36,271 nucleotides of DNA from an uncultured Thermoanaerobaculia bacterium. Its GTDB lineage: Bacteria; Acidobacteriota; Thermoanaerobaculia; Multivoradales; DATKCC01. Positions within the stretch are counted from its first letter, which is position 1. Every line of letters starts with the position of its first letter. The translations under genes and the position numbers were made by a program. The stretch lies in contig CAZIIB010000002.1 of the NCBI GenBank assembly GCA_964539125.1, positions 1 to 36,271 of the forward strand. Reading direction: 5' to 3'. Positions 1-35,089 of this stretch are shown piece by piece. A model generated the notes under the pieces. That model saw only the letters and a program-made list of their open reading frames with translations, did not search any database and was not told the origin of the DNA.

Positions 1-2226
1 ACCGCCCGGGCCCTCGGGTATCGGGCCCGCAACCGGGTGCCCGCCGAGGAGGTCCGCCTCGCCGTGGTGGTCCAGCGGCTGGTTCCCGCCGAGGTGTCCG
101 GAGTCCTGTTCACCGCCAACCCGTTGACCGGCCACCGGGGCGAGATCGTCGTCGACGCCAGCTTCGGGCTCGGAGAGGCGGTGGTTTCCGGGCAGGTGGA
201 GCCCGACCACTACGTCGTCGACTCGCGGCGGTGGCGGATCTCCTCCAAGGCCCTGGGCGCCAAGGCCCTGGCGATCGTCCCGCGGCCCCAGGGGGGCACG
301 GCGGTCGTCGACCGGAGCGACGGCGACCTCTCGGCGCTCTCGGACGCCCAGATCCTCGAGCTGGCGAGGACCGCGGCGCGGGTCGCCGAGCACTTCGGAA
401 CGCCCCAGGACGTGGAGTGGGCCTGGGCGGACCGGCTCTATCTTCTCCAGGCGCGTCCGATCACGACGCTCTTCCCCCTCCCGGCCCCGCCGGCCGGGGC
501 GGGCGACGGGCTCCGGCTCTACCTGAACTTCAGCGCCATCCAGGGGGTGATGGATCCCTTGACGCCTCTCGGCCGCGCCGCCCTCCAGATCCTGGGCCGG
601 GGCTTCCGCGCCGCCGCCGGGCACGATCTCGTGGTCGAAGCCGGAGGCCGGATCTTCTGCGACATCACGGGGCCACTGCGCAATCCGCGCCTGCGCAGGC
701 CGCTCCTGGGGGCCATCGGCCGGGTCGATCCGGGGGCCCGGCAGGCCCTCGCCGGCCTCCTCGAGCAGGGGCGGCTCACCGGCGGGGGGGCGCCGCGGCC
801 CCGGAGGCGCGGCGGCCCCCTGCGCCGGCTCAAGGCGCCCGCCGCCGTGGGCCGGAGGATCTTCCGCGCCCGTCGCCTGATCCGGCGCGCCGTCTCCGCG
901 CTCGTCTTTCCCAAGTGGACCCGCGCCCGCGCCGTCGCGGCCTCGGAGGCGTTTCTGGCGGACATCCGCCGGCGGGCCCCCGAGACCCGGGACCTGGCCG
1001 GCCTGCTCGCCTCCTTCGAGGCCGACGTCAGGGCCACGGCGGGTGGCGTCTTCGGCCACCTGGCGCCGCTCACCGTTCCGACGACCATCCTCATGTCGGT
1101 GGTGGACCGTTGGCTGGTGCGCTGGTTGCGCCTCGAGCCGGGAGCGGGCCTCCAGCTCATGCGCGGAATGCCCGACAACGTGACCGTGGAGATGGACCTG
1201 GCGCTTTGGAGGATCGCGCGGACGATCCGGGCGGACGGCGCGACCCGCGAACGGCTGCTCGCCCGGTCGGCCCAGGAGCTCGCCGAGGACTACCGGAGGC
1301 GGGCGCTCCCCCGGGCCGTCCTGGAGGCGATCGATCGCTTCCTGGAGGAGTACGGCATGCGGGGGGTGGCGGAGATCGACATGGGGCGCCCCCGGTGGCG
1401 CGACGATCCGAGCCTGGTCCTGGACGTCCTCCACGGCTACCTGGAGCTGGAGGACGACACGCACTCGCCCGAGACCACCCTCGAGCGCGGCGCCGCGGAG
1501 GCGGAGGCGTTGCGGGCGGAGTCCGTGCGCCGGCTTCGAGCGACTCGCGGAGGCTTCCCGCGGGCGAAGCTGCTGAATGCGGCGATCTATCGGTTGCGCG
1601 CCCTGGGCGGGCTGCGGGAGCTGCCGAAGCTCCAGTTCTGCAAGGTACTGGACGTCTATCGGACGCTGCTGCGGACCCGCGGCGAGGAGCTGGTGGCCGC
1701 CGGCGCGCTGGCCCAGGCCGACGACGTCTTCTTCGTTCCGCTCCCGGAGCTCGAGCGCTTCGCGGCCGGCGAGCCGGTGGACCTGCGGGGCGCCGTCGCG
1801 GCCCAGCGCGCCGACTACGAGCGCGAGGTCGCCCGCCGCTGGCCGCCACGCCTGCTCCTGAGCACCGGCGAGACCTTCTATGAAGGCCTGAGCGAGGGCG
1901 GCGACGGCACCGACCTGGTCGGCGCCCCGGTATCGCCCGGGGTGGTCGAGGGCAATGTGCGGGTGGTCTTCGAGCCCCGCGGAGCTCACCTCGAGCCGGG
2001 AGAGATCCTGGTCTGCCCGTCCACCGATCCCTGTTGGACGCCCCTGTTCGTCACCGCCGGCGGCCTGGTGATGGAGATGGGCGGTCTCGCGACCCATGGC
2101 GCGGTCGTGGCTCGCGAGTACGGCATCCCGGCGGTCGTGGGCGTCCACCAGGCAACCGAGCAACTGAAGACCGGAACGCGGATCCGGGTGGACGGCAGCG
2201 CGGGCCGGGTCACCCGGCTCACCTGA
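1..2226 (+). CDS. PEP-utilising phosphotransferase (PpsA / rifampin-phosphotransferase-like dikinase), 5'-truncated by the window edge
   Basis: Frame 1 is open from nt 1, with no stop before the listed GTG at 37, so the gene starts upstream of the window. The N-terminal part matches the distal half of a PEP/pyruvate-binding ATP-grasp domain (RLAVVVQRLV..SGVLFTANPLTG..GLGEAVVSGQVEPDHY..DVEWAW..LYLLQARPIT). A ~440-aa Arg-rich helical middle region follows. The C terminus is a PEP-utiliser swivel domain with the phosphohistidine motif GGLATHGAVVAREYGIPAVVGV. The TGA stop at 2224-2226 lies 1 nt before the next ATG. Confidence 0.85.
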   Translation, partial: TARALGYRARNRVPAEEVRLAVVVQRLVPAEVSGVLFTANPLTGHRGEIVVDASFGLGEAVVSGQVEPDHYVVDSRRWRISSKALGAKALAIVPRPQGGTAVVDRSDGDLSALSDAQILELARTAARVAEHFGTPQDVEWAWADRLYLLQARPITTLFPLPAPPAGAGDGLRLYLNFSAIQGVMDPLTPLGRAALQILGRGFRAAAGHDLVVEAGGRIFCDITGPLRNPRLRRPLLGAIGRVDPGARQALAGLLEQGRLTGGGAPRPRRRGGPLRRLKAPAAVGRRIFRARRLIRRAVSALVFPKWTRARAVAASEAFLADIRRRAPETRDLAGLLASFEADVRATAGGVFGHLAPLTVPTTILMSVVDRWLVRWLRLEPGAGLQLMRGMPDNVTVEMDLALWRIARTIRADGATRERLLARSAQELAEDYRRRALPRAVLEAIDRFLEEYGMRGVAEIDMGRPRWRDDPSLVLDVLHGYLELEDDTHSPETTLERGAAEAEALRAESVRRLRATRGGFPRAKLLNAAIYRLRALGGLRELPKLQFCKVLDVYRTLLRTRGEELVAAGALAQADDVFFVPLPELERFAAGEPVDLRGAVAAQRADYEREVARRWPPRLLLSTGETFYEGLSEGGDGTDLVGAPVSPGVVEGNVRVVFEPRGAHLEPGEILVCPSTDPCWTPLFVTAGGLVMEMGGLATHGAVVAREYGIPAVVGVHQATEQLKTGTRIRVDGSAGRVTRLT

Positions 2227-2227
2227 G

Positions 2228-8712
<6,485 letters not shown>

Positions 8713-8716
<4 letters not shown>

Positions 8717-21753: not shown

Positions 21754-22652
21754 CGGTCACGATCGCGGACTACGACGTCGCCCTGGAGCGCTTCCTGGAA
21801 ACCCTGGGCCGGATCGGGGCCGGCCTCCAGAGCGTCGTCCTCCACGGCTCCATGGCGTGCGGCACGGTCAAGCCGGGCTGGAGCGACGTGATGGACGCCC
21901 ACGTGGTCCTGGGCGACGAGGTGTTCGAGGATCGGGAGACCTACCTCGCCGCCCTGGCGGTGATGCTGGACGCCTGCCAGGAGCTGGAGGCCTCCGGCCT
22001 CCCCTTCCACCCCTTCGGCTACCTGAGCCGGGACGAGCTCTCCGCCCTCCACCTCTCGCCGTTCTACACCTTCCCCTTCGAGCCGTACTCGCGGACGGCG
22101 TTCGGCGAGGACCTGCTCTCGGAGATCCGCCAGGGGCCGGCGAGCCGCGAGCTCGCCCGTACCTACTTCTTCGAGGCGCGTCATGCGGCCCACTTCCATC
22201 TCGCCAGGTTCCTGGGGAAGCCGGAGCTCACCGACGCCGAGCGCGCGCAGCTCATCACCGTCCTGCTCTCGATCAACAAGTCCCTGGTCATGGCCTGTGC
22301 GGCGCTGGGCGTCGACCTCGTCGACATCCGGAAGCTCGACATCGTGGCGCAGCTCGAGACTCTGGTCCCCGGGCTCGACGCCTCGGTCATCGGCCGGATC
22401 GAGGACCTGCGGGGCGCCCTGGAGGTGGCCCCGGAGACCGCGCGACCCGCCCGGAAGGCGCGGGGGAGCCTGAGCGAGGAGGGAGCGAGGCGCAGCGAAG
22501 AGGCCCGGGAGGTCGCCTGGCAGGCCCTGCGCTTCGTCGAGGCGCTCCACGACGAGATCGTCCGCCGCCGACGCGACGAGGCGACGGTCTGCTCCGAGGC
22601 CGTGCCCGCGGCTCCCACCCACGGCGGACAGATGCGCGAGGGGAAGGGCTGA
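21750..22652 (+). CDS. Nucleotidyltransferase-fold protein, AadA / ANT(3'')-like (atypical metal-binding motif)
   Basis: 300 aa. ATG 21750 forms an ATGA overlap with the PKS stop, with GAGGAG 9 nt upstream. The N terminus VVLHGSMACGTVKPGWSDVMDAHVVL (nt 21846-21896) resembles the aminoglycoside adenylyltransferase motif LYGSxxxGGLKPxSDIDLLV, but the two Asp are spaced D-x-x-D rather than D-x-D. The downstream helical half (FGEDLLSEI..ARHAAHFHLARFL) resembles the AadA C-terminal domain. GC3 codon bias supports this frame. Confidence 0.6.
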   Translation: MTVTIADYDVALERFLETLGRIGAGLQSVVLHGSMACGTVKPGWSDVMDAHVVLGDEVFEDRETYLAALAVMLDACQELEASGLPFHPFGYLSRDELSALHLSPFYTFPFEPYSRTAFGEDLLSEIRQGPASRELARTYFFEARHAAHFHLARFLGKPELTDAERAQLITVLLSINKSLVMACAALGVDLVDIRKLDIVAQLETLVPGLDASVIGRIEDLRGALEVAPETARPARKARGSLSEEGARRSEEAREVAWQALRFVEALHDEIVRRRRDEATVCSEAVPAAPTHGGQMREGKG

Positions 22653-24028: not shown

Positions 24029-27000
24029 ATGAGCACGGGCAAGACCGAGAATCCCATCGAGAGCATCGCGATCGTCGGCATGAGCGGGAGGTTCCCCGGA
24101 GCGGCGGACGTCGACGAGTTTTGGCAGAACCTCCAGGCCGGCAAGGAGTCGATCGAGATGCTCTCGGACGACGAGCTGCGGAGCCAGGGCATCCCCGACT
24201 CGGTGCTCGCCAAGCCCAACTACGTCAAGGCGCGCTCCGCGGTCGACGGCATGGAGCTGTTCGACGCCTCCTTCTTCGGCTTCAACCCGAACGAAGCGAG
24301 GATTCTCGATCCCCAGCACCGCCTGTTCCTGGAGTGCGCCTGGGCGGCGCTGGAGAACGCGGGGTACGACGTCGAGACCTACCCCGGCACGGTCGGGGTG
24401 TTCGGCTGCGCCAGCTCCAGCAACTACTTCCTCTACAACCTCTTCCCGAACCGTGAGGTGAGGGACCTGGTGGGGGCCTTTCAGCTCGCCATCGGAAACG
24501 ACCGGGAGTTCCTGCCCACCCGGGTCTCCTACAAGCTGAACCTGAAGGGCCCGAGCGTCAACGTCCAGACCGCCTGCTCGAGCTCGCTGGTGGCGGTCCA
24601 TCTGGCTTGCCAGAGCCTGCTCAACTATCAGAGCGACATGTGCCTGGCCGGCGGGGTCTCCATCCGGAGCGCCGTCGGCGGCTACTACTTCACCGAGGGG
24701 GGCATCCTGTCGCCCGACGGTCACTGCCGAGCCTTCGACGCGCGGGCCCACGGGACCATCTTCGGCAGCGGTCTGGGAATCGTCGTCCTCAAGCGTCTGC
24801 GCGACGCCCTCGATGACGGGGACGAGATCTACGCGGTGATCCGGGGCTCCGCGGTGAACAACGACGGCTCGGACAAGGTGGGCTACACGGCTCCGGGAGT
24901 CGAGGGCCAGACCCGCGTCATCGCCGAGGCGCAGGCCATCGCCGGCGTCGACCCGGACACGATCGACTACGTGGAGGCCCACGGCACGGCCACGGCGCTG
25001 GGCGACCCGATCGAGGTGGCGGCCCTCACCCAGGTGTTCCACCGCGGCACGTCGCGGCGGAACTATTGCGGGATCGGCTCGGTCAAGAGCAACGTCGGGC
25101 ACCTCGACGCCGCGGCCGGCGTCACCGGCCTGATCAAGACGGCGCTCATGGTCAAGCACGGAAAGCAGGTGCCGAGCCTCCATTACCGGGAGCCGAACCC
25201 CCAGATCGACTTCGCGAGCAGCCCGTTCTTCGTCGGCACCGAGCTCCGCGACTGGCAGGTCGAGAAGAGACCACGGCGGGCCGGTGTGAGCTCCTTCGGG
25301 ATCGGCGGCACCAACGCCCACCTCATCCTGGAGAGCGTCGCCCCCCGGGAGGCCGCGACTCCGTCGGTCGCGCCGCATCTGCTCTTCCTCTCGGCGCGCA
25401 CCGCCAGCGCCCTCGAAACCGCCACGGCGAATCTCGCCCAGCACCTGAAGCTCCACCCGGAGGTCGATCTCGGCGACGTCGCCCACACCCTGCACGTCGG
25501 CCGCGCCGCTTTCGACCACCGCCGGATGCTGGTCTGCACCGACGTCGACGACGCCGTCACGGCTCTGGAGACGGCTAGCCCCCGGCGCCTGAGGACCGCC
25601 GTCCACGAGCCCGCGCCGCGCAACGTGGTCTTCATGTTCCCGGGCCAGGGCGCCCAGTACCCGGGGATGGGCGCCGGCCTGTACGACGGCGAGCCGGTCT
25701 TCCGCCGTCACCTGGACGCCTGCCTCGAGGTGCTGGAGGCGCGTGCCGAGCTCGACCTGCGCCCGGTTCTCTATCCCGCCGGCGAGCCGTCGGAAGAGGA
25801 GAAGGCCACGCTCTCCGAGACGGGGTTCGCCCAGCCGGCGCTCTTCGCGGTGGAGTACGCGCTGGCCAGGCTCTGGATGGAGTGGGGAGTCTCTCCGGAG
25901 GCGCTGATCGGCCACAGCATCGGGGAGTACGTGGCGGCCTGCCTGGCGGGAGTCTTCTCCCTCGAGGACGCTCTGGCGCTGGTGGCGCGGCGGGGGCGCC
26001 TGATGCAGGACCTCCCCGGCGGTTCCATGCTGTCGGTCCCGCTGAGCGCCGAGGAGCTGTCGGGGCGCCTGGGAGAGGACCTGGCCCTCGCGGCGGTCAA
26101 CGGACCCTCGGTCTGCGCCGTGTCCGGGACCCCGGAGGCGATCGCCGGCCTGGAGGCCCGGCTCGCCGAGGAGCAGGTGGCCTTCCGGCGTCTCCACACC
26201 TCCCACGCCTTCCATTCCGCCATGATGGATCCCATCCTCGACGAGTTCACCGAGGCGGTGGAGGCGGTCGAGCGCCGGCCGCCGCAGATCCGCTTCCTGT
26301 CCAACGTCAGCGGTACCTGGATCACCGACGCCGAGGCGACCGATCCGCGCTACTGGGCCCGGCACCTGCGGGAGACCGTGCGGTTCTCGGACGGCGTGCG
26401 GGAGCTCCTGAAGGACCCGTCGCGGGTCTACCTGGAGGTCGGTCCGGGGCGGGCCCTCTCCGCCCTGACCCGGCAGCACCGCGAGGGACCGGCGACGAAG
26501 CTGGTGCTCTCGTCCTTGCGGCCGGCGAACGAGCTGCGCCCGGACGCCGAGGTGCTCCTCGACGCCCGGGGTCAGCTCTGGCTGGCCGGCGTCGAGGAGG
26601 CCCCCGGAACGCTCCATGCCGGCGAGGGCACCCGCCGGGTGCCGTTGCCGAGCTATCCCTTCGAGCGGCGGCGCTACTGGATCGAGGCGGGCGCCGCCAC
26701 GGAGGCGAAGGACGAGGCGCCGGCGGGCAGGATCCAGGACCTCTCCGACTGGTTCTTCCTACCCTCCTGGAAGCGCTCCACGCCCCTGGCGGTCGCCGAC
26801 GGGTCGAGCCCGGAAGCCTCCTGGCTGGTCTTCTCCGACGACTGCGGCCTGGGAGACGCCCTGGACGGGAGGCTCCGGGAAGCCGGAGAGGAGGTCTTCT
26901 CCGTCCGCGCCGGCACCGGCTACGGCGAGGCGAAGGACGGCACCTTCACCGTCGCCCCGGGGAGTCGCGCCGACTACGTCGACCTGCTTCGCGGACTCGA

Positions 27001-29704
27001 AGGCCGGCGCACCAAGCCCCTCAACGTGGTCCACCTGTGGAGCGTCACCGGTGAGGCGAAGAACGACCTGGGCGAGCTCGACGAGGTCCAGGGAGCGGGC
27101 TTCGACAGCCTGCTCTGCCTGGTGCAGGCCGTGGGCGAGGCGCTTCCGGACGAAGAGGTCCACCTGGGCGTGGTCTCCAACGATCTCCACGCGGTGCTGG
27201 ACGGAGACCGGCTCAGCCCGGCGAAGGCGACGCTGCTCGGCCCCGCCAGGATCGCGCCGGCGGAGTACCCCAACCTGAGCTGCAGCTCCATCGACGTGGT
27301 CCTGCCGGGCTCCGCCGAGGGTCTCGCCGATCTCGCCGGCTCCCTGGTGGCGGAGCTCGGGGCGCGGCGCCGCGAGCCGGTGGTGGCGTACCGCGGCGGC
27401 TACCGGTGGATCCAGACCTTCGACGCGGTCCGCCTCGAGGCCGGTGACGGGGAGGCGCGGCGGTTGCGAGATCGCGGCGTGTACCTGATCACCGGCGGTC
27501 TGGGAGGGGTCGGCCTGACCCTGGCGCGCCACCTGGCGGAAGCGGTGCGGGCGCGGCTCGTCCTGGTCTCGCGCTCGGCCCTGCCGGCGCGGGAGGAGTG
27601 GAAGGGGTGGCTGGAGTCGCATCCCGAGGCCGACGAGACGAGTCGGCGGATCCTGGAGATCCAGCGCCTGGAGGAGGCCGGCGCCGAGGTGTGGGTGGCG
27701 TCGGCCGACGTCGCGCACCGGGAAGAGATGGAAGAGGTGGTGCGGCGGGCGGTCGAGCGGTTCGGGGCGATCCACGGCGTCATCCACGCCGCCGGGCTGC
27801 CGGGGGGCGGCCTGATCCAGCTCAAGACTCGGGAGACGGCGGCCGAAGTCCTCGCGCCGAAGGTGCGGGGCAGCCTGGTGCTCGACTCGGTGCTCCGCGG
27901 CCGGGACCTGGACTTCTTCGTCCTCTGCTCCTCGCTGGCTTCGATCCTCGGCGGCGTCGGAAAGGTGGACTACTGCGGGGCCAACGCGTTCCTCGACGCC
28001 TTCGCGCACCTCCGGTCGGAGCGCGACGGCGGCGGACCCACCGTCTCCATCTGCTGGGACACCTGGGGGGAGGTGGGCATGGCCGTCAAGGCGGTGGAGG
28101 CCTTCGGCTCGCCGCACGCCGCCGGGAACGGGTCCGGCACCGGGCCGTCCGGAGCGTCCGTCCCGGCGCAGGCGGGCGAGGCGGCCGAGCATCCCCTCTT
28201 CGACCGCGTTCGGCGGAGCGGCGACGAGGAGGTCTACTCGACGGAGATGAGCGCCGACCGGCAGTGGGTGGTGGGCGAGCACCTGATCGGCGGCCGTCCG
28301 ACCCTCGTCGGGACCGCCTACCTGGAGATGGCCCGGGCGGCCTTCGAACGACGGGCTTCGGGCGCTCCGGTGCGCATCGAGGACGTGCTCTTCGTGTCGC
28401 CCTTGAGCCTGGAGGCCGAAGGGGCAAGGGAGGTGGAGACCGTCCTCCAGGAGAGCTCGGACGGCGTCTCGTTCGTCGTCCAGAGCCGGCCTCTGGGGGG
28501 CGGCGACGGCGCCCGGCCCTGGCAGGAGCACGCCCGCGGGCGGCTCGCCCCACTCTCCGCGGAGGCGGCGGAGGCGGTCGACCTGCAGAAGCTCCTGGCG
28601 CGCTGCGACTCGGAGGTCATCTCGCCGTCGCGCTCCGGCTCGGGTGGCTCCGAGCCGGCCGCGGACGCCAAGCCCGCGGAGATGAGCTTCGGTCCGCGCT
28701 GGAAGAGCCTCCAGAAGATCTACATCGGGGAGAACGAGGCGGTGGCTCTCCTGGAGCTCCCTGCCGAGTTCGCGGACGACCTGGGCGCCTTCGGTCTCCA
28801 CCCGGCGCTCCTCGATCTCGCAACCAGCTTCGCCATTGCGCGCCTGGGCGGCGGCGGCCTCTACCTGCCCTTCGCCTACCAGGCGGTGGACGTCCGCCGG
28901 CCCATGACCGGGCGCTCGTACAGCCACGTGAGATTCGCGGCGGACGGTTCCGGCGGCGCCAAGGAAGCGGTGACCCTCGACATCTCGGTGCTCGACGAGG
29001 AGGGCAACGTCCTGGTGGAGGTCGCCGGCTTCACCATGAAGCGGGTGAGCGAGAAGCTGCTCCAGGCGCTGGCGGCGCGGGGCGGCCGGGGCGTCGCGCC
29101 GGACGAGCATGAGCCCGCCGCACCGGCTGCGGCGAAGGGGCGATCGGTGCCGACTCTCCGGGACGCGATCCGCCCGCAGGAGGGGGTGGAAGCCTTCCGG
29201 CGCATCCTCTCCCGCGACGGCCTACGCCAGGTGATCGTCTCCACCCTGCCCTTCCGGCCTCGGGTGGAGAGGGCGCGCACCGCCAGCTCCGCCAAGCTCG
29301 TGGAGGAGATGGAGGAGCGCAGCCAGGCGGCTCCGCCGACCCACGCCCGGCCGAGCGTCAAGACCGAGCTGGTCGCGCCCCGCAACGAGCTGGAGGAGCA
29401 GATCGCGGCCATCTGGCAGCGGGTGCTGGGGATCGAGCAGATCGGCGTCAACGACGACTTCATCGAGCTCGGCGGGCACTCGCTGCTGGCGATCCAGATC
29501 ATGTCGCAGATGCGGGAGGCCTTCCAGGTCAACCTGCAGCCCGACACCATCCTGAACTCGCCCACGGTGGCCACCCTGGCCGAGGCGATCCTCCAGGCTC
29601 TCGCCGAGGCCGCGGACAGCGAGCTCATCGGAGAGCTCCTCGACGAAGTCGAAGGGCTGTCCGACGACGAGGCCGGCGCGATGTCGACCGCGGACACCGT
29701 TTGA
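24029..29704 (+). CDS. Type I PKS module with non-canonical order: KS-AT-KR-DH-T plus an acidic C-terminal docking tail
   Basis: 1891 aa, with GGAAGGTGAG upstream of ATG 24029. KS: QTACSSSLVAVH, EAHGTATALGDPIE, KSNVGHLDAAAG. AT: GHSIGEYVAA and SHAFHS. KR: GVYLITGGLGGVG..HAAG..GKVDYCGAN..SICWDTWGEVGMA. DH: HPLFDRV..WVVGEHLIGGRPTLVGTAYLEM..HPALLDLATS. T domain: FIELGGHSLLAIQI. Tail: ELIGELLDEVEGLSDDEAGAM. Confidence 0.95.
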   Translation: MSTGKTENPIESIAIVGMSGRFPGAADVDEFWQNLQAGKESIEMLSDDELRSQGIPDSVLAKPNYVKARSAVDGMELFDASFFGFNPNEARILDPQHRLFLECAWAALENAGYDVETYPGTVGVFGCASSSNYFLYNLFPNREVRDLVGAFQLAIGNDREFLPTRVSYKLNLKGPSVNVQTACSSSLVAVHLACQSLLNYQSDMCLAGGVSIRSAVGGYYFTEGGILSPDGHCRAFDARAHGTIFGSGLGIVVLKRLRDALDDGDEIYAVIRGSAVNNDGSDKVGYTAPGVEGQTRVIAEAQAIAGVDPDTIDYVEAHGTATALGDPIEVAALTQVFHRGTSRRNYCGIGSVKSNVGHLDAAAGVTGLIKTALMVKHGKQVPSLHYREPNPQIDFASSPFFVGTELRDWQVEKRPRRAGVSSFGIGGTNAHLILESVAPREAATPSVAPHLLFLSARTASALETATANLAQHLKLHPEVDLGDVAHTLHVGRAAFDHRRMLVCTDVDDAVTALETASPRRLRTAVHEPAPRNVVFMFPGQGAQYPGMGAGLYDGEPVFRRHLDACLEVLEARAELDLRPVLYPAGEPSEEEKATLSETGFAQPALFAVEYALARLWMEWGVSPEALIGHSIGEYVAACLAGVFSLEDALALVARRGRLMQDLPGGSMLSVPLSAEELSGRLGEDLALAAVNGPSVCAVSGTPEAIAGLEARLAEEQVAFRRLHTSHAFHSAMMDPILDEFTEAVEAVERRPPQIRFLSNVSGTWITDAEATDPRYWARHLRETVRFSDGVRELLKDPSRVYLEVGPGRALSALTRQHREGPATKLVLSSLRPANELRPDAEVLLDARGQLWLAGVEEAPGTLHAGEGTRRVPLPSYPFERRRYWIEAGAATEAKDEAPAGRIQDLSDWFFLPSWKRSTPLAVADGSSPEASWLVFSDDCGLGDALDGRLREAGEEVFSVRAGTGYGEAKDGTFTVAPGSRADYVDLLRGLEGRRTKPLNVVHLWSVTGEAKNDLGELDEVQGAGFDSLLCLVQAVGEALPDEEVHLGVVSNDLHAVLDGDRLSPAKATLLGPARIAPAEYPNLSCSSIDVVLPGSAEGLADLAGSLVAELGARRREPVVAYRGGYRWIQTFDAVRLEAGDGEARRLRDRGVYLITGGLGGVGLTLARHLAEAVRARLVLVSRSALPAREEWKGWLESHPEADETSRRILEIQRLEEAGAEVWVASADVAHREEMEEVVRRAVERFGAIHGVIHAAGLPGGGLIQLKTRETAAEVLAPKVRGSLVLDSVLRGRDLDFFVLCSSLASILGGVGKVDYCGANAFLDAFAHLRSERDGGGPTVSICWDTWGEVGMAVKAVEAFGSPHAAGNGSGTGPSGASVPAQAGEAAEHPLFDRVRRSGDEEVYSTEMSADRQWVVGEHLIGGRPTLVGTAYLEMARAAFERRASGAPVRIEDVLFVSPLSLEAEGAREVETVLQESSDGVSFVVQSRPLGGGDGARPWQEHARGRLAPLSAEAAEAVDLQKLLARCDSEVISPSRSGSGGSEPAADAKPAEMSFGPRWKSLQKIYIGENEAVALLELPAEFADDLGAFGLHPALLDLATSFAIARLGGGGLYLPFAYQAVDVRRPMTGRSYSHVRFAADGSGGAKEAVTLDISVLDEEGNVLVEVAGFTMKRVSEKLLQALAARGGRGVAPDEHEPAAPAAAKGRSVPTLRDAIRPQEGVEAFRRILSRDGLRQVIVSTLPFRPRVERARTASSAKLVEEMEERSQAAPPTHARPSVKTELVAPRNELEEQIAAIWQRVLGIEQIGVNDDFIELGGHSLLAIQIMSQMREAFQVNLQPDTILNSPTVATLAEAILQALAEAADSELIGELLDEVEGLSDDEAGAMSTADTV
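24059..25333 (+). other. KS domain
   Basis: aa ~11-435, triad intact. Confidence 0.9.
25619..26584 (+). other. AT domain, malonyl-CoA-type motifs
   Basis: aa ~531-852, with FPGQGAQY, ETGFAQPALFA, GHSIGE and HAFH. Confidence 0.85.
26741..28063 (+). other. KR domain
   Basis: aa ~905-1345. WFFLPSW..NVVHLWSV structural part, then GGLGGVGLTLARHLA, then CSSLASILGGVGKVDYCGAN. Confidence 0.85.
28184..29053 (+). other. PKS-type dehydratase (double hot-dog) domain located downstream of the KR
   Basis: aa ~1386-1675. HPLF start. Catalytic His in EHLIGGRPTLVGTAYLE (His codon at nt 28280-28282; the usual Pro of HxxxGxxxxP is Val). The second motif, LHPALLDLATS, has Ser where Q/H is usual. Confidence 0.7.
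29366..29593 (+). other. Carrier (T) domain, PCP-like
   Basis: aa ~1780-1855: LVAPRNELEEQIAAIWQRVLGIEQIGVNDDFIELGGHSLLAIQ. Confidence 0.85.
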
Positions 29705-29742
29705 TTCACCGAGACCCTGCCGACGGAAACGGGAGACGACCG

Positions 29743-30897
29743 ATGACCAACATCGCCGAACGTATCGCCAACCTGCCGCCGGAGAAGCGCACTCTTCTCC
29801 TGGAGCGGCTGCGCCGCCAGGGGGTCGTCAAGGGGAGTGGGGAGGCGGCGCCTGCGCCCGACCCCACCCGGAGGCCGTTCGATCCGGAACGGGACGGGAA
29901 CTTCCATCTCGAGGTCACCCAGCCGGGAGTCCTCGAGAGTCTGCGGCCGCGGGTCTGCCCGCGCCGGACCGTGGGTCCCGGACAGGTGCTGATCGAGGTC
30001 TCGGCGGCGAGCATGAACTTCCGGGACGTGCTGATCGCCCTGGGGATGTACCCGACGCCACCCGGGATCAAACCGGTGATGGGGAGCGACTGCGCCGGCA
30101 CCATCGTCGCGCTGGGCGAGGGCGTCGAAGGGCTGCGCGAGGGCGACGAGGTCCTGGCCCTGACCTCGGACAGCCTCAGCGCCATCGCCGCCGCCTCGGC
30201 GGTGACGGTGGCGAAGAAGCCGGCCGCGATGACCTTCCAGGAGGCGGCATCGATCCCCACGGTCTTCCTGACGGTCTACTATTCCCTCCAGGTCCTCGCC
30301 CGCCTGGCGCAAGGAGAGCGTCTCCTGGTGCACTCGGCGGCCGGCGGCGTGGGACTGACCGCGCTGCAGCACGCCCGCTGGCGTGAGGCCGAGGTCTTCG
30401 CCACCGTCGGCACCCAGGAAAAGCGGGACCTCCTCCGCTCCATGGGGGTGGAGCACATCATGAACTCCCGGTCCCTCGACTTCGCCGACGAGATCCTGGA
30501 GATGACCGGCGGCGAAGGCGTGGACGTCGTGCTGAACTCCCTGGCGGGGGAGGCGATCCCCCGGGGCATCGGGCTCCTGCGGCCCCTCGGCCGGTTCATC
30601 GAGCTGGGCAAGCGCGACATCTACGAGGACAAGAAGATCGGTCTGCGGCCGTTCCACAAGGGCCTGTCCTTCTTCGCCATCGAGCTGAGCCCCCTGGCCG
30701 CCAAGAGGCCCGAGCTGTTCCGTTCCCTCTGGCGCGAGGTCCTGGACCTCTTCGCCGAGGGTGTCTTCACGCCTCTGCCCAGCACCGTCTACTCCATCAA
30801 CGACGCCGCGGACGCCTTCAAGTTCATGTCCCAGGGGATCCACATCGGCAAGATCGTCATCGACATGAAGCCCGGCGAGGTCCTCGTGGAGGCCTGA
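29743..30897 (+). CDS. Stand-alone PKS-type enoylreductase (MDR superfamily) with an N-terminal docking-like helix
   Basis: Preferred start is ATG 29743, with GGGAGA 7 nt upstream. The listed TTG at 29701 overlaps the PKS stop and adds 14 poorly coding-looking residues. ER motifs: PGQVLIEVSAASMNFRDVLIALGMYP, GSDCAGTIVALGEGV, and the NADPH-binding LLVHSAAGGVGLTALQ. The N terminus is MTNIAERIANLPPEKRTLLLERLRRQG. Confidence 0.85.
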   Translation: MTNIAERIANLPPEKRTLLLERLRRQGVVKGSGEAAPAPDPTRRPFDPERDGNFHLEVTQPGVLESLRPRVCPRRTVGPGQVLIEVSAASMNFRDVLIALGMYPTPPGIKPVMGSDCAGTIVALGEGVEGLREGDEVLALTSDSLSAIAAASAVTVAKKPAAMTFQEAASIPTVFLTVYYSLQVLARLAQGERLLVHSAAGGVGLTALQHARWREAEVFATVGTQEKRDLLRSMGVEHIMNSRSLDFADEILEMTGGEGVDVVLNSLAGEAIPRGIGLLRPLGRFIELGKRDIYEDKKIGLRPFHKGLSFFAIELSPLAAKRPELFRSLWREVLDLFAEGVFTPLPSTVYSINDAADAFKFMSQGIHIGKIVIDMKPGEVLVEA

Positions 30898-30918: not shown

Positions 30919-31419
30919 ATGAGCGACCGCATCGAGAGCGTCTTCATCGGCACGGCCGGGCTCGCGTTGGCGGCGTTCGTCGCCCTCTACCTGGCGATCG
31001 CGCGGAGCGCGGCGGCCTCCGAGCCGGCGGCCCGCGATCGCCTCGTGCGACTGGTCGCCCTCGCCATCGCGGTAGAGGCCCTGCACTTCGTCGAAGAGCT
31101 GACGACCGGCTTCCAGCGCCAGTTTCCCCACTTCCTGGGGCTCACCGACTGGACGACCGGCTTCTTCGTCACCTTCAACGTCGCGTGGTTCCTCGTCTGG
31201 ATCGTGTCCGCGTTCGCTCTGCGGCCGAACTACGCCTGGGCCTATTTCCCGATCTGGTTCCTGGGGATCGGGATGCTGGTCAACGGCATCGTCCATCCGT
31301 TCCTGGCGCTGGCGAGCGGGCGGTACTTCCCGGGCCTCCTGACCTCCCCCTTCGCCGGGGTGCTGGGAGCGATCCTCCTGCGGCGGCTGTGGGTGCTGAC
31401 CCAGGCCCGGTGGTGGTAG
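30919..31419 (+). CDS. HXXEE-domain integral membrane protein (function unknown)
   Basis: 166 aa with about four hydrophobic spans. Signature H-F-V-E-E within EALHFVEELTTGF. GGAG lies 7 nt upstream of the ATG. Confidence 0.7.
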   Translation: MSDRIESVFIGTAGLALAAFVALYLAIARSAAASEPAARDRLVRLVALAIAVEALHFVEELTTGFQRQFPHFLGLTDWTTGFFVTFNVAWFLVWIVSAFALRPNYAWAYFPIWFLGIGMLVNGIVHPFLALASGRYFPGLLTSPFAGVLGAILLRRLWVLTQARWW

Positions 31420-31428: not shown

Positions 31429-32835
31429 GTGCGCCGAGGCGACGGAGCGGAGGCGACGGCCCGGTCACCGTGGGGCCTCCTGGCAGATCGCGGGTCCCGG
31501 ACCTTCGTCTCGCTCTGGGCGGCCCAGGTCGTCTCCCAGCTCGGCTCGGGCCTCTCCGGCTTCGCCCTGGGCGTCTGGATCTACCAGGACACCGGCTCGG
31601 TGACGCAGTTCGCCGCCATGACGCTGTCGCTGATGCTTCCGGGCGTCCTCGCCACGCCGCTGGCCGGCATGTTCAGCGACCGGTGGGATCGCCGCCGAAC
31701 GGTCATCGTCTGTGAGGCGACCAGGTCCCTGGGCACGTTGGCCATCGCGGTCCTGCTCCTCACCGGGACGTTCAACCTGTGGAATCTCTGCCTGACGCTG
31801 GCCCTGAGCTCCACCTTCACCGCCTTCAAGGAGGTGGCGGCCAATGCCATGGTGGTGATGCTCATCCCGAAGGAGCAGTTCGGGCGGGCGAGCGGCCTGC
31901 TCCAGGCGGGGCGCCCCGCGACCCGCATCCTCTCGCCCATGATCGCGGCGGTCCTCCTGGTGTGGATCGGGATCGTGGGCGTCGTCCTCATCGACTTCGT
32001 CACCTTCCTGGCGCCCATCGCGGTCCTTCTGTTCGCCGACGTCCCGGCCCCCCCGGCGAGCGACGAGGGAGCGGTGGGAAAGGGATCCGCCTGGCGCGAG
32101 CTGATCACGGGCTGGACGTTCATCCGCAGCCGCCGAGGCGTCCTGGCTCTCCTCGGGTACTTCGCCATCCTCGATCTCACCATGGGTTTCGCCTACGCCC
32201 TCTATCGCCCGATGCTCCTGAGCTTCACCTCGGTGGAGGTGGTGGGCACCGTGAGCTCCGTGGGGGCGAGCGGGGTGCTCCTCGGCAGCATCGTCCTGGT
32301 GGCGTGGGGCGGGCCGCAGCGGCGGGTGCCGGCGATTCTCTTCTTCGGGGTGCTCTATGGCCTGGGGCTGATCGCCATCGGGCTGCGGCCCTCGGCGTGG
32401 CTCGTGGGGAGCGCGCTGTTCGTGCTGATCTTCGGCATCCCCTTGAGCCGGGGGTTCATCCGGATCATCTGGATGCGCAAGACCCCGGCGGATCTCCAGG
32501 GCCGCGTGTTCGCGGTCTGGACCGTCATCTCGCGTGTGACGCTCCTCCTCGCCTTCGCCCTGTCCGGGCCGCTTGCGGACCGGGTGTTCGAGCCGCTCCT
32601 CGTCGCGGGAGGCCCGCTGGCGGCGACGGTGGGACGGTGGATCGGCGTCGGGCCGGGCCGGGGCATGGGCCTCATGTACATCGGTCTCGGGGTGATCTCC
32701 CTGGTGGCGACCGGCCTCGCCTCCCTCCACCGCGGCCTGCGCCGACTGGAAGAGGATCTGCCCGACGCCATCGAGGATGCGGCCCCGCCGGACTCCGGCC
32801 TCCCGATCTCGGGGCGGGTGGCGACCCCCCAGTGA
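31429..32835 (+). CDS. MFS transporter (DHA3 / EntS / macrolide-efflux-like), probable exporter
   Basis: 468 aa with about 12 hydrophobic spans. N terminus FVSLWAAQVVSQLGSGLSGFALGVWIY..LAGMFSDRWDRRR is typical of this MFS subfamily. GTG 31429 is preceded by GGAGG with a 5-nt spacer. Confidence 0.85.
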   Translation: MRRGDGAEATARSPWGLLADRGSRTFVSLWAAQVVSQLGSGLSGFALGVWIYQDTGSVTQFAAMTLSLMLPGVLATPLAGMFSDRWDRRRTVIVCEATRSLGTLAIAVLLLTGTFNLWNLCLTLALSSTFTAFKEVAANAMVVMLIPKEQFGRASGLLQAGRPATRILSPMIAAVLLVWIGIVGVVLIDFVTFLAPIAVLLFADVPAPPASDEGAVGKGSAWRELITGWTFIRSRRGVLALLGYFAILDLTMGFAYALYRPMLLSFTSVEVVGTVSSVGASGVLLGSIVLVAWGGPQRRVPAILFFGVLYGLGLIAIGLRPSAWLVGSALFVLIFGIPLSRGFIRIIWMRKTPADLQGRVFAVWTVISRVTLLLAFALSGPLADRVFEPLLVAGGPLAATVGRWIGVGPGRGMGLMYIGLGVISLVATGLASLHRGLRRLEEDLPDAIEDAAPPDSGLPISGRVATPQ

Positions 32836-32875
32836 CCCGGGCGGTCCGCGATCGGCGGAGATCGGGCGTGGCGTG

Positions 32876-33706
32876 ATGGCAGGGAGCGAGGAGATCGGGA
32901 CGTCCGAGGCGCTGCCCGCGCGCCGGTTCCGCATCTACAACGTCGGCATCGCCAAGACCGGCACCACCTCCATCGCCGGCATCTTCGGGCGTTACAGGTC
33001 GGCGCACGAGTACATGTTCCAGGAGACGGTGGAGCGGATCTCGGCCTGGCACCGAGGCGAGATCTCGGACGAGGACCTCCGGGAGCACGTGCTGCGGCGG
33101 GACCGGGAGGGCAACCTCGAGCTCGACTCCGCGAGCTTCAACCACCACTTCCTCCCCATCCTCGTCGAGGAGTTCCCGGACAGCAAGTTCATCTTCACCG
33201 TGCGCGACTGCTTCTCCTGGCTCGACTCCATCGTCGCCATGGGTCTCCAGGCCGGAAGCGGGGTGCCCGACTGGATGGTCGAGTACGGCCGGTTTCTGGC
33301 GAGCGACAGGGTGGGACGGTCTTCGATCGCCGCCCCGTTCGACATCCTCAAGGCCCTGCCCGACCTGGTGGACGGCCTGTTTCGCTACTGGAGCGAGATG
33401 AACGGGAGGGTGCTCGCGCTGCTTCCGGAAGGCCGGTCGCTGATCGTGCGCACGGACGAGCTCTCGAGCTCCCTGGATCGCCTGGCGCTGTTCGCCGGAG
33501 TGCCGCGCGACACGCTGGTGGGGCGGGCGAAGCACGAGAACCGGGCCACGGGACGGATCGACGTCTTGCCGAGCCTGGACCCGGCCCTGGTGGAGGAACG
33601 GTACGCCGCGCGTTGCCGGCCGCTGATGGAGCGTCTCTTCCCGGATCTCGCCTCCAGGCCCCGCCCGTCCTCCGGCCGGTCCCCGCTCCCGGAGACGACG
33701 GTTTGA
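32876..33706 (+). CDS. PAPS-dependent sulfotransferase-like protein
   Basis: Start taken at ATG 32876. The listed start at 32777 overlaps the MFS gene and encodes an Arg/Pro-rich stretch. 5'-PSB-like loop VGIAKTGTTSI (compare PKxGTT). 3'-PB-like FTVRDCFSWLDS (compare RDPxxxxxS). About 276 aa, typical for cytosolic/bacterial sulfotransferases. Confidence 0.6.
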   Translation: MAGSEEIGTSEALPARRFRIYNVGIAKTGTTSIAGIFGRYRSAHEYMFQETVERISAWHRGEISDEDLREHVLRRDREGNLELDSASFNHHFLPILVEEFPDSKFIFTVRDCFSWLDSIVAMGLQAGSGVPDWMVEYGRFLASDRVGRSSIAAPFDILKALPDLVDGLFRYWSEMNGRVLALLPEGRSLIVRTDELSSSLDRLALFAGVPRDTLVGRAKHENRATGRIDVLPSLDPALVEERYAARCRPLMERLFPDLASRPRPSSGRSPLPETTV

Positions 33707-33721
33707 CGGCGCCGGCCGTCA
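33704..33721. terminator. Stop-to-stop hairpin between convergent genes (possible bidirectional terminator)
   Basis: TGACGGC-GCCG-GCCGTCA is a perfect 7-bp stem with a 4-nt loop. The outer triplets are the TGA stops of the + strand sulfotransferase (33704-33706) and the - strand halogenase (33719-33721). There is no U-tract on either side. Confidence 0.35.
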
Positions 33722-35089
33722 GAACCTGGGCACGAACGCCCGCACCGTCATGTCGTTGAGCAACTCGTGCCAGGGGTGCTTCGGGTTGTCCTCCACCTTC
33801 CGGACCATCTCCCGCATCTCCGCGAGCACCGGCGGCTCGTCCTGGTCGTAGACGTCGCCCTGGAGGAGCTTGAGGACGTCGAGGCGGTAGCGGGGATCTT
33901 GCACGAAGAAGGTGAACAGGACGTTCAGCCGGTAGTAGAGCGAGATGAAGCTGTGCCAGTTGTCGGCGCCGCGGCGGATCGTCTGCTGGTACTCACCGTA
34001 GGTCTCCTGGCGGAAGTCCCCCGTCTCGAGGGCCCGCAGGACGTCCCTGTGGGCAAAACGCGAGCTGTTGAGGGCGATGCTCACCCCGGTGGAGAAGATC
34101 GGATCGACGAAGCGGGCGGCGTCGCCGATCATGAGCCAGCGGTCGCCGCAGATCTGGGTCATGGCGTAGCTGTAGTCGGCCTCGTGGGTGAAGGGCCGCA
34201 CCTGGGTGGCCGCCCGGAGCCTCTCGGCCACCTCCGGTCGCGATTCCAGGGTCTTCCAGAAGAACTCCTCGCGCGACTGCCGGGACTTCGCAAAGCTCCC
34301 CCGCTGCGTGACCACGCCGATGCTGGTGAGCTCCTCGGAGATGGGGATCTGCCACGCCCAGGTGTTCGCCAGCGGCAGGAAGTGGATGAAGATGTAGTTG
34401 CGCATCAGCGGGGTCTTCGCCCAGGCGTCGCGGTCGTAGTCGCCGAACCAGGTGTGGATCGCGAACTGGTCGAACTCCTCGTCGCGGACGCGGAGCTTGA
34501 GCTGGTTGCCGAGGAGGGTGCGCCGGCCGCTGGCGTCGACGACGATCTGGGCGCTCAGCTTGGACTCCTTGCGTCCGAGGCCGAAGACGACCCGGGGCGG
34601 CGAGCCGTCGTCGAGCTCGACCTGCCGAACCCGCACTCCCTCGTAGACCTGCGCGCCGAAGCGGTGGGCGTGGAGAAGGAGCTCGTTGTCGAAGTCCGCC
34701 CGGTCGACGTGGTAGGTGTACTCCTGGTCCACGCCCGGCTGGGCTCGTTCGGCGAAGCGGACGGTGGCCTCGGTCTCCGGGTGGAGGTCCCGCTCGTCGT
34801 CGGACGCCCGGAACTCGAGGGTGTGGGAGCCGGACCGGTTGCCCGCCGTCCAGGCGGCGCCGAACTTCTTGGGGTAACTGCGTTCCTCCATCTTGTCGAG
34901 GAAGCCCAGGTCCTTGAAGACCCGCGTGGACGAGGGCACCAGAGATTCTCCGACGTGGGGCCGAGGGAAGATCTCCCCTTCGAGCACGACACAGTGGACA
35001 CCGGCCTTGGCCAGGTAGGCGGCCATGCTGGCGCCGGCCGGGCCGCCGCCGAGGATCGCGACATCGGTGTGCGTTCTGTGCGGACTCAT
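33719..35089 (-). CDS. Flavin-dependent halogenase (tryptophan-halogenase family; non-Trp, carrier-protein or small-molecule variant likely)
   Basis: FAD motif DVAILGGGPAGASMAAYLAKAG. Hallmark NTWAWQIPI (WxWxIP). FVDPIFSTGVSIAL (FxDPxFSxG). Candidate catalytic Lys in YPKKFGAAW. Preferred start is ATG at 35089 (MSPHRTHTDVAILGGG). The listed TTG at 35188 would add 33 aa. Confidence 0.85.
   Translation of the reverse strand: MSPHRTHTDVAILGGGPAGASMAAYLAKAGVHCVVLEGEIFPRPHVGESLVPSSTRVFKDLGFLDKMEERSYPKKFGAAWTAGNRSGSHTLEFRASDDERDLHPETEATVRFAERAQPGVDQEYTYHVDRADFDNELLLHAHRFGAQVYEGVRVRQVELDDGSPPRVVFGLGRKESKLSAQIVVDASGRRTLLGNQLKLRVRDEEFDQFAIHTWFGDYDRDAWAKTPLMRNYIFIHFLPLANTWAWQIPISEELTSIGVVTQRGSFAKSRQSREEFFWKTLESRPEVAERLRAATQVRPFTHEADYSYAMTQICGDRWLMIGDAARFVDPIFSTGVSIALNSSRFAHRDVLRALETGDFRQETYGEYQQTIRRGADNWHSFISLYYRLNVLFTFFVQDPRYRLDVLKLLQGDVYDQDEPPVLAEMREMVRKVEDNPKHPWHELLNDMTVRAFVPRF

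Follow-up and report, generated by a model that had tools for sequence, protein, structure and literature searches.

Several described systems share parts with the locus analysed here, a 36,271-bp stretch of contig CAZIIB010000002.1 (hereafter the window) in which a module of a polyketide synthase (PKS) carries an additional C-terminal domain, termed X, next to the gene of a nucleotidyltransferase (NT). Olefin synthases (OLS) start with a FAAL (fatty acyl-AMP ligase) followed by an acyl carrier protein (ACP), while off-loading in CurM and OLS proceeds via a sulfotransferase-thioesterase (ST-TE) pair (PMC11837247). Monooxygenase domains (MOx) located within glycine-specific adenylation (A) domains, as in MtaG and MelG, catalyze hydroxylation of the glycine C-alpha, which in the myxothiazol and melithiazol pathways is followed by cleavage of the N-C bond (PMC11342130). 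With a probability of roughly 60%, we read the window, whose proteins are designated g1 to g13 from left to right, as an uncharacterised cluster for a hybrid of a lipo-nonribosomal peptide synthetase (lipo-NRPS) and a cis-acyltransferase (cis-AT) type I PKS, which would build a fatty-acyl-glycine polyketide and in which the NT (g6) and a GT4-family glycosyltransferase (g7), tethered through X, would act in line. Uncharacterised NRPS/PKS clusters are common in metagenomes, and the cluster as such is unsurprising; its distinctive part is the PKS-tethered module of a pseudo-NT, an NT and a GT4 enzyme, which points to an undescribed means by which an assembly line recruits tailoring enzymes.

The X domain, its nucleotidyltransferase partner and the linked glycosyltransferase

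Protein g5 carries X after the ACP of a module composed of ketosynthase (KS), AT, ketoreductase (KR) and ACP, and in this respect resembles CurM and the cyanobacterial olefin synthases (KS-AT-KR-ACP-ST-TE), which likewise possess a group-transfer-type domain directly after the ACP of a module that forms a beta-hydroxyl. It differs from them in that the appended domain is of the nucleotidyltransferase (NTase) fold and probably inactive, that no TE is present and that a further PKS module is encoded downstream, while the sulfotransferase g12 is the product of a separate gene located 11 kb away rather than part of a fused ST-TE.

X returned no match in Pfam, in NCBIfam or among PDB sequences, and is conserved at 61-69% in high-GC relatives of the cluster and at 35-49% in acidobacterial loci. 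Comparison of the g6 family with the X family (ten X sequences) by hhalign returned a probability of 94.5% (E 7.8e-8) over 158 columns, in which residues 87-270 of g6 align with residues 42-212 of X and a hh-G-x-D-h-R motif is shared; in addition, the hidden Markov model (HMM) of X cross-matches five ordinary g6-family proteins, with E values between 5e-6 and 4e-4. The relationship is seen only with these deeper alignments, as hhalign with two-sequence profiles of g6 and X returned nothing. On the strength of this profile homology, and because neither the GS nor the DxxD catalytic motif is conserved among the ten X sequences, X is best described as a putative pseudo-enzyme, i.e., a catalytically degenerate, remote paralogue of the NT g6.

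The presumably active partner was likewise hard to place in searches based on single sequences: g6 matches nothing in Pfam, in NCBIfam or among PDB sequences, the exact protein is not on record, a tblastn search of a plasmid collection returned no match and a word-indexed search of 5.8 billion proteins recovered just one homologue. An exhaustive HMMER search of 1.84 billion proteins yielded 95 family representatives, 31 of them with E < 1e-30, and Y8, G33, S34, S45, D46 and D49 are invariant among 61 members. For the scan of a genome collection a six-sequence alignment proved effective, while g6 alone recovered no relatives and the 61-sequence alignment was too diverse for a pattern; a metagenome scan with the g6 alignment returned nothing, and that with the X alignment three short loci only. 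An AlphaFold2 (AF2) model of g6 based on the 61-member alignment reached a pLDDT of 90.6; that from a two-sequence alignment (pLDDT 56.6) gave meaningless Foldseek matches and was not used. The highest-ranking Foldseek hits of the former are ANT(4') (6UN8/1KNY), AAD(9) (6XZ0) and AadA (5LUH), with a probability of 1.00 and E values of 8e-4 to 5e-3, a result which supports, for fold and motif, the assignment of g6 as an ANT-like nucleotidyltransferase in the original prediction. Two relatives of g6, P0245 and P0246, exceed the Pfam NTP_transf_2 cut-off, while g6 itself has no match to this family. In common with ANT(4') (kanamycin NT), AAD(9) and AadA, g6 possesses an NTase domain and a helical second domain in its predicted fold, and its GS...D..D signature may correspond to the catalytic signature hG[GS]...D-x-[DE]; it differs from them in sequence (9-15% identity), in its DxxD motif, in its biosynthetic context and in its partner X, a separate degenerate paralogue located on a PKS. 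In the ANT(4') dimer both subunits contribute to the active sites, which provides a rationale for a pair consisting of an active g6 and an inactive X.

X and NT adjoin in eleven further loci (L006, L008-L013 and the Logan contigs L001-3 and L014). In every locus examined X lies directly upstream of the NT gene or is fused to NT, and in all six GTDB loci, which derive from metagenome-assembled genomes (MAGs) of Pyrinomonadaceae, other Acidobacteriota and Bryobacteraceae, it stands immediately 5' of the NT gene. Five family representatives are single X-NT polypeptides (P0305, P0319, P0324, P0325 and P0326). The NT is also found fused to glycosyltransferases, namely to GT4 in P0243 of L014, one protein of 709 aa with 63% identity to g6 and 71% to g7, and to a Capsule_synth glycosyltransferase in P0311. 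Fusion of X behind the ACP of a KS-AT-KR-ACP module is seen in the window, in L001, in L014, in L008 and, judged by protein length, in L004. The GT4 assignment of g7 is credible on its two Pfam matches (Table 1), and its nearest solved structures are alpha-maltose-1-phosphate synthase (6TVP), followed by MshA- and BshA-type enzymes. Judged from gene order and fusions, X, NT and GT4 form a unit that is conserved and linked by fusions, and which is attached to a PKS in the window. The four families of hydroxyl-decorating enzymes named in the original prediction are all present, but its picture of four independent enzymes has to be revised, since X, NT and GT4 belong to one linked unit.

X/NT pairs also occur outside PKS fusions, as illustrated by a metagenome contig of 55% GC (Ga0207665_10023502; L006), where two paralogous g6-like genes flank an X-like gene (NT-X-NT, 1047-3470) and are followed by an ABC-transporter-like gene, with no PKS in view. 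In L009 (11351-12331, 14779-16362) a stand-alone X-NT pair lies near a streptomycin ANT(6)-family adenylyltransferase (PF04439) and an amidase, and in L010 (3881-4690, 7609-10014) such a pair has an esterase on one side and an acylase of the penicillin-amidase type on the other, two glycosyltransferases being encoded further downstream; both loci are from acidobacterial MAGs. The neighbours in L009 and L010 hint at masking and unmasking chemistry.

In the reading favoured here, X would be the dead half of a heterodimer with g6, by analogy with the ANT(4') dimer, and would keep the active NT and, via the NT, the GT4 enzyme beside the ACP of g5. The obvious acceptor would be the 3-hydroxyl generated by the g5 KR. 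On the assembly line or close to it, this hydroxyl could receive a nucleotidyl group, a sugar or both, and the nucleotidyl group might stay as a final decoration, serve for activation or mask the hydroxyl temporarily. A more specific version, according to which the PKS-fused dead half docks g6 and the latter O-nucleotidylylates the ACP-bound beta-hydroxyl, so as to prepare it for glycosylation or substitution or else to mask it, is offered tentatively and is in our estimate unlikely; if true, it would represent a form of in-line polyketide tailoring not yet described, and would give an enzyme fold associated with 'antibiotic resistance' a biosynthetic origin.

The RPH-like kinase g1 (RPH, rifampicin phosphotransferase), the ANT-like NT with X, and GT4 might instead constitute a self-protection or pro-drug system, by which a toxic product is masked on leaving the line and unmasked outside the cell. 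RPH-, ANT- and GT-type families are best known for the inactivation of antibiotics by phosphorylation, nucleotidylylation and glycosylation, and the closest characterised relatives of the enzymes in question are the resistance enzymes RPH and ANT(4')/AAD(9)/AadA. Such a system would also be consistent with the stand-alone X-NT pairs found near an ANT(6)-family enzyme and an amidase, or near an esterase and a penicillin-amidase-type acylase, and with a secreted hydrolase of the GDSL type encoded at the window's right-hand edge. The location of X on a mid-pathway PKS module, with g8 still downstream, nevertheless suits in-line action better than the masking of a finished product, and the NT-GT4 and NT-Capsule_synth fusions suggest biosynthetic coupling, which leaves self-protection a doubtful explanation, albeit one that is not mutually exclusive with in-line tailoring. 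The occurrence within a producer pathway of three folds (RPH, ANT and GT) that are chiefly familiar from the inactivation of antibiotics bears on the question of where resistance enzymes originate.

The likeness to CurM and OLS further raises the option that X is a release or off-loading domain, with g5 as the last module, g8 and g9 acting earlier or iteratively, and O-nucleotidylylation replacing the O-sulfation of CurM as the activating step. This option would follow CurM/OLS logic (PMC11837247) and would fit the KS-AT-KR-ACP-X architecture of a beta-hydroxyl-forming module in a pathway with no other release domain. X, however, possesses neither the NT catalytic motif nor a hydrolase signature, and it is also encountered stand-alone or NT-fused without any PKS. 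Moreover, a docking-type basic helix (DDRARRQAEAINRQR), which by eye is similar to the C-terminal tails of g2, g3 and g4, stands between the g5 ACP and X, which suggests that g5 still docks to the KS of g8, its sole free partner, and that X is an appendage rather than a terminator. A role of X in release is consequently regarded as very unlikely.

Modules of the assembly line and the proposed chain

The GC content of the window is 68-75% throughout, being slightly lower beyond 29 kb (0.68-0.70, versus 0.72-0.75 before), and codon-position GC (GC3 of 0.9-0.98, with a phase of GC1 > GC2) reveals an unbroken row of plus-strand genes from position 1 to 33706, followed by the halogenase gene g13 on the minus strand and a further plus-strand gene from 35488. 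A row of twelve genes on one strand, overlapping or very closely spaced, had been proposed and is indeed present, with junctions of -8 to +21 nt and an exception of 73 nt before g8. Individual spacings are +1 nt (g1/g2), -4 (g2/g3), -8 (g3/g4), -4 (g4/g5), -4 (g5/g6), +4 (g6/g7), +73 (g7/g8), -4 (g8/g9), +21 (g9/g10) and +9 (g10/g11), while that of g11/g12 is -59 nt by the longest open reading frame (ORF), or +40 if g12 starts at the ATG at 32876. The halogenase gene, by contrast, is separate from this row, being convergent with g12 at a distance of 12 nt. An Rfam scan of the window returned no RNA family. The modules that had been assigned to one assembly line are each confirmed by Pfam and NCBIfam (Table 1).

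Table 1. Predicted genes and domains of the window, with the principal basis of each assignment
Feature	Position	Strand	Assignment	Basis
g1	1..2226	+	RPH-like ATP-grasp/swivel-His phosphotransferase, 5' end cut by contig edge	PPDK_N, PEP-utilizers
g2	2228..8716	+	FAAL-ACP-C-A(MOx)-PCP: FAAL aa 16-576, ACP 605-680, condensation (C) 705-1158, MOx insert 1411-1750, peptidyl carrier protein (PCP) 2054-2118	Pfam, NCBIfam
g3	8713..13386	+	KS-AT-KR-ACP	Pfam
g4	13379..16270	+	KS-AT0-ACP, without reductive domains	Pfam
g5, main part	16267..21099	+	KS-AT-KR-ACP, then basic docking-type helix and low-complexity linker	Pfam
X	21100..21750	+	C-terminal domain of g5, ~217 residues, putative degenerate g6 paralogue	hhalign, HMM cross-matches
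g6	21750..22652	+	ANT-like two-domain nucleotidyltransferase (NT), 300 aa, rare unnamed family	Fold, invariant motif
g7	22657..23955	+	GT4 glycosyltransferase	Glycos_transf_1 4e-31, Glyco_transf_4 2e-21
g8	24029..29704	+	KS-AT-KR-DH-ACP (DH, dehydratase), acidic C-terminal tail	Pfam
g9	29701..30897	+	Stand-alone medium-chain dehydrogenase/reductase (MDR) enoyl reductase (ER), N-terminal docking-like peptide; probable start ATG 29743	ADH_zinc_N, ADH_N
g10	30919..31419	+	Small membrane protein, borderline HXXEE; putative cluster member	PF13787 24.9 bits vs 25
g11	31429..32835	+	Major facilitator superfamily (MFS) transporter; putative cluster member	MFS_1 2.4e-27; TIGR00900 162 bits, under cut-off
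g12	32777..33706	+	Sulfotransferase, likelier start ATG 32876; putative cluster member	Sulfotransfer_4 30.3 bits vs 22.8
g13	33719..35089	-	PltA/Mpy16/ChlB4-type flavin-dependent halogenase, ATG at 35089; putative cluster member	phmmer 4e-156

The starter protein g2 is best matched over residues 4-576, among ligase models, by the FAAL families PRK05850, PRK12476 and FadD32 (467-513 bits, under the whole-protein cut-offs), and its FAAL directly precedes PP-binding and Condensation domains, which is the arrangement of lipo-initiation. The C domain contains the HHxxxD motif as HHIVAD, and the carrier domains possess the phosphopantetheine serine in GVDSL, GGHSL and GGDSL motifs. The A domain scores 594 bits with TIGR01733 (cut-off 317) and is split in Pfam by Bac_luciferase, this insert being situated after core A4 (FDISVLE) and before A5 (NMYGPTETTIW). 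The predicted MOx insertion is genuine, as TIGR04020, the model of natural-product luciferase-like monooxygenases (LLM), scores 520.6 bits on residues 1411-1750 against a cut-off of 244.45. With a Stachelhaus code that was read by eye as DILQMGMIWK, near the glycine code, the A domain reads as glycine-specific.

The module therefore resembles those of MtaG and MelG in harbouring a MOx of the same family (TIGR04020) between A4 and A5 of a Gly-type A domain. In MtaG and MelG, however, it is the last module, with a TE and terminal amide release, whereas in g2 it is the first, is fused behind FAAL-ACP-C, is followed by a KS and lacks a TE. If the MOx of g2 acted as described for myxothiazol and melithiazol (PMC11342130), the hemiaminal would collapse, the fatty amide would leave and glyoxylyl-S-PCP, or nothing, would pass to the PKS, in which case the lipid would be a transient cap or a separate product and no part of the polyketide. 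Identity of family and of location within the A domain argues for such chemistry, while the position of the module at the start of the line, with no TE after it, argues against it, as do the many homologues that continue with NRPS modules and the wastefulness of spending a fatty acid on a glyoxylate starter; as a matter of general chemical knowledge, N-acyl-alpha-hydroxyglycines are also fairly stable without a lyase. Both the cleavage and the reduction of the lipid to a cap or by-product are thus judged quite improbable, and retention of the N-acyl-glycyl starter is preferred.

A second NRPS module follows the same FAAL-ACP-C-A(MOx)-PCP start in P0005, P0006, P0026, P0027, P0030, P0033 and others, and some MOx-start synthetases also possess a TE, e.g., those of Sorangium sp. 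So ce128 and Roseiflexaceae. No MOx-glycine start is found among the starts covered by a review of FAALs (PMC11837247), and N-acyl-(hydroxy)glycyl lipopeptides would seem to form a widespread class that is still uncharacterised. The MOx-glycine module at the start of the line, being common to many unstudied lipopeptide synthetases, prompts one to ask for all of them whether the N-acyl-alpha-hydroxyglycine is retained or undergoes cleavage.

The KS domains of g3, g4, g5 and g8 all retain the catalytic Cys and the two His residues (GCSTS/ACSTS/ACSTA/ACSSS, EAHGT/ETHGT and K(S/A/T)N(L/I/F/V)GH). The AT domains of g5 (GHSVGE) and g8 display GHSxGE together with HAFH and are of the malonyl type; that of g3 has a normal GHSLGE (at approximately residue 631) but an atypical VAAH(S) (at approximately residue 729) where HAFH or YASH would be expected, and this module may use an unusual extender unit. 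For the second PKS module, g4, the prediction of an AT0 was correct, in that the AT match covers only positions 1-113 of the 319 in the profile, GHSxGE is replaced by GYGTGE and the C-terminal half is absent; an orthologue of the same length (964 aa) is present in L004. Judged by these defects the g4 AT is dead, and because of this the module would have to be loaded in trans or be non-extending. An active AT (GHSxG) is present in g3, g5 and g8 but not in g4. The KRs possess the K/S/Y residues; both stereochemistry markers, LDD and W, are absent from them.

In g8 the KR (1150-1347) precedes the DH (1388-1678) and the ACP (1790-1854), which is an unusual order; the DH carries its His within EHLIGGRPTLV and its Asp within HPALLD. 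A full-length g8 orthologue (54% identical), located at the same position and with the same KR-before-DH order, is present in L008, as is an orthologue of g9 (62% identity, same position). Among NCBIfam models, g9 aligns best (280 bits) with the ER part of mycobacterial Pks2. An N-terminal extension of ~60 aa in g9 (29701-29880), with LPPEKRTLLLERLRRQG, and the acidic tail of g8 (29590-29704), LLDEVEGLSDDEAGAM, look by eye like a matching docking pair.

The proposed pathway would commence with adenylation of a fatty acid by the FAAL, its loading onto the ACP and its joining to glycine to give N-acyl-Gly-S-PCP, the glycine C-alpha of which the MOx would hydroxylate. Four malonyl-type C2 extensions would follow, leaving a beta-hydroxyl (g3), a beta-keto group (g4, trans-loaded), a beta-hydroxyl (g5) and a fully reduced position (g8 together with g9), and the resulting chain would be an ACP-bound 10-(acylamino)-5,9-dihydroxy-7-oxodecanoyl. 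The RPH-like kinase could phosphorylate a further hydroxyl or a carbonyl oxygen with ATP and, provided that they are members of the cluster, the sulfotransferase would add sulfate, the halogenase chlorine, and the MFS protein would export the product. Pfam and NCBIfam detected no chain-release function (TE, reductase (R) or terminal C domain) in the 13 proteins of the window. Since a TE is missing, delta-lactonisation via the 5-hydroxyl is put forward as a speculation on release, which might otherwise be performed by an enzyme encoded outside the window, and the product class 'polyol lipid' stays a proposal for as long as no release domain is at hand.

Several points weigh against in-line tailoring of a fatty-acyl-glycine polyketide as outlined above. 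N-C cleavage of the MtaG/MelG kind (PMC11342130) would lose the acyl chain as an amide. On its left side the cluster is incomplete, and something other than a plain fatty acid may serve as starter; how the pathway ends is unexplained, there being no thioesterase, reductase or terminal C domain. The Foldseek TM-scores of g6 are only 0.39-0.49, and the spacing of its motif is DxxD and not the classical DxD. X-NT pairs also exist without PKS fusion, in varied NRPS/PKS neighbourhoods, and their role may therefore be a general one, e.g., self-protection. The type of the halogenase implies a pyrrolyl- or aryl-S-carrier substrate, which is not obviously made by the pathway. Finally, we know of no nucleotidylylated, in-line glycosylated or phosphorylated polyketide intermediate from any pathway.

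Related loci and the left-hand part of the cluster

The first gene of the window had been predicted to encode an RPH-like, phosphoenolpyruvate (PEP)-dependent phosphotransferase. An RPH-like nature is suggested by the three-part PEP-synthase-like architecture (PPDK_N 1.8e-45, PEP-utilizers 2.1e-24) and by a swivel histidine within GGLATHGAVVAREYGIP, features shared with RPH, PigC and RedH; dependence on PEP, however, is at odds with what is known of the family, as RPH, PigC and RedH enzymes use ATP. The NCBIfam scores of g1 are 518 bits for PRK06241.1-3, 483 for RIF_Ptrans_rph (cut-off 999, against a truncated protein), 279 for RedH and 257 for PigC, all under the respective cut-offs, while the Listeria RPH structures 5FBS/5HV1 match at 2e-103. 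Alignments begin at approximately residue 156 of the RPH/PEP-synthase profiles, i.e., g1 lacks ~156 N-terminal residues. It differs from RPH and PigC/RedH in its scores below the equivalog cut-offs, its truncation and its translational coupling to the NRPS gene, and is nearer to RPH than to RedH/PigC.

The best homologue of g2, P0004, is 68% identical, has the same architecture and is encoded on a 233-kb JGI metagenome contig. L004, which represents the 26.5 kb readable of contig Ga0395784_0000014 from JGI 3300037692 (72% GC), displays the gene order of the window, i.e., RPH-like (913 aa), NRPS, PKS (1554 aa), PKS (964 aa) and PKS (1827 aa), at 65-77% identity; its g1 orthologue is 72% identical and occupies the same position, and the tight coupling to the NRPS gene is kept. 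On the same strand and 5' of the RPH-like gene (1-7274), L004 additionally encodes a stand-alone A domain, a carrier protein, two FabF-like KSs, SCP2, an archaeal-type HMG-CoA synthase, a thiolase, a DUF35 protein and a PEMT-type methyltransferase. Because biosynthetic genes continue leftward in L004 and g1 is truncated, position 1, where the cluster had been taken to begin, is the edge of the contig, by which g1 is cut at its 5' end, rather than a border of the cluster. The window corresponds to the entire contig and, by comparison with L004, is most plausibly the right-hand ~35 kb of a larger cluster from an uncultured bacterium of ~72% GC.

The thiolase/HMG-CoA synthase/DUF35 trio of L004 is of archaeal style and unusual in a bacterial NRPS-PKS cluster. 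Its interpretation as a KAS-III-like/thiolase/DUF35 trio of the PhlACB kind was dropped, since NF003274 scores above its cut-off (324 bits vs 244) and identifies an archaeal-type HMG-CoA synthase. The stand-alone A domain of L004, considered as a PltF-type prolyl ligase for the halogenase, looks more like a glycine-type domain than PltF (LgrA A2 245 bits vs PltF 132).

The Logan contigs L001-3 and L014 (71-73% GC) carry X, NT, GT4 and g8-type KS sequences at 57-76% identity. Pyrinomonadaceae MAG SMAG_U3200 (DASVQF010000043.1; L008) contains a block of six genes in the order of the window, KS-AT-ACP / KS-AT-KR-ACP-X / NT / GT4 / KS-AT-KR-DH-ACP / ER, with which it shares the PKS-fused X, the KR-before-DH order and the stand-alone ER. 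It differs from the window in its GC content (61%), in sequence (38-62% identity), in the full AT of its KS-AT-ACP module and in the NRPS gene that follows the ER. The cluster is represented at 71-73% GC in four sample sets (the window, JGI 3300037692, Logan SRR24224855/6/8 and Logan SRR13588946), its more distant relatives being acidobacterial MAGs. The nearest named PKS/NRPS homologues are from Acidobacteriota, Chloroflexota, cyanobacteria and myxobacteria, and none are from actinomycetes, on which ground a Streptomyces origin, as GC alone would suggest, was rejected; the search with g8 was dominated by bimodular PKSs, and the orthologue of the JGI cluster was not among the matches listed. 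The hosts would be uncultured soil-type lineages whose gene content is related to Acidobacteriota.

The original prediction recognised no characterised pathway in this arrangement, and none was encountered in searches of the full-text literature, which yielded no account of these genes as a set, of an NTase-like domain fused to a PKS or of a cluster of this kind with an RPH-like gene; close homologues of the window proteins are all unnamed metagenomic proteins, and no product is linked to any related locus found here. That the cluster is uncharacterised is well supported, though not proven, as it is a conclusion drawn from the literature without a MIBiG comparison.

Genes at the right-hand end

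Beyond the ER gene, g10 does encode a small membrane protein, while its assignment to HXXEE is borderline, the score lying just below the cut-off (Table 1). The sulfotransferase g12 is credible, with a Sulfotransfer_4 score above cut-off and the sequence AKTGTTS, which resembles a 5'-phosphosulfate loop for 3'-phosphoadenosine-5'-phosphosulfate (PAPS); no PDB sequence matched g12. Its longest ORF extends 59 nt into the MFS gene and begins with 33 Arg/Pro-rich residues, and a start at ATG 32876 (MAGSEEIG...) is more likely.

A flavin-dependent halogenase was correctly predicted: g13 matches Trp_halogenase/FAD_binding_3 in Pfam, and PltA, Mpy16 and ChlB4 (5BUK, 5DBJ and 7FCO) over its full length in phmmer (4e-156, 523 bits), with which it shares the FAD motif GGGPAG, WxWxIP as WAWQIP, and the catalytic Lys within YPKKFGAAW. 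Halogenases of this type act on pyrrolyl or aryl thioesters bound to carrier proteins. The window contains no pyrrolyl/aryl-S-carrier route, i.e., neither a set of prolyl-AMP ligase, PCP and dehydrogenase nor an aromatic-acid synthase, and g13 differs from PltA, Mpy16 and ChlB4 in having no partner genes there and in its convergent position at the edge of the cluster. Chlorination of the polyol chain, which had been suggested as a possibility, is not the obvious reading for a halogenase of the PltA/Mpy16/ChlB4 type. Its substrate may be an intermediate from the missing left part or an enolisable beta-ketoacyl-ACP (e.g., that of g4), or g13 may be a mere neighbour.

The latter may apply to all of g10-g13, which would then belong to another pathway or to none, with g9, the ER gene, as the last of the cluster. 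In L008, the one relative readable beyond the ER gene, an NRPS condensation-domain gene comes next instead, and the fall in GC beyond 29 kb (from 0.72-0.75 to 0.68-0.70), the HXXEE match under cut-off and the PltA-type halogenase, which lies on the other strand and has no matching substrate pathway in the window, point in the same direction. On the other hand, gaps of 9-40 nt on one strand from g9 to g12 make co-transcription with the PKS genes likely, an exporter and tailoring enzymes are usual at cluster edges, and the high-GC relatives are readable only as far as g8. A cluster boundary at g9 is thus considered rather unlikely, and g10-g13 are retained as putative members.

Outside the cluster stretch, a gene for a secreted GDSL-type hydrolase (35488-36271, plus strand) runs off the right end of the window. 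The protein has a signal-peptide-like N-terminus, MPIRLRRFAVPVLVFVLLAAAMGAPATHA, and the GDSL block VTLGDSLG, its Lipase_GDSL score of 21.8 bits being slightly below the cut-off of 23.6, and it could be an unrelated neighbour or an unmasking esterase. A sigma-70-like site, TTGACA-17-TATGCT, is located upstream of this gene at 35218-35246.

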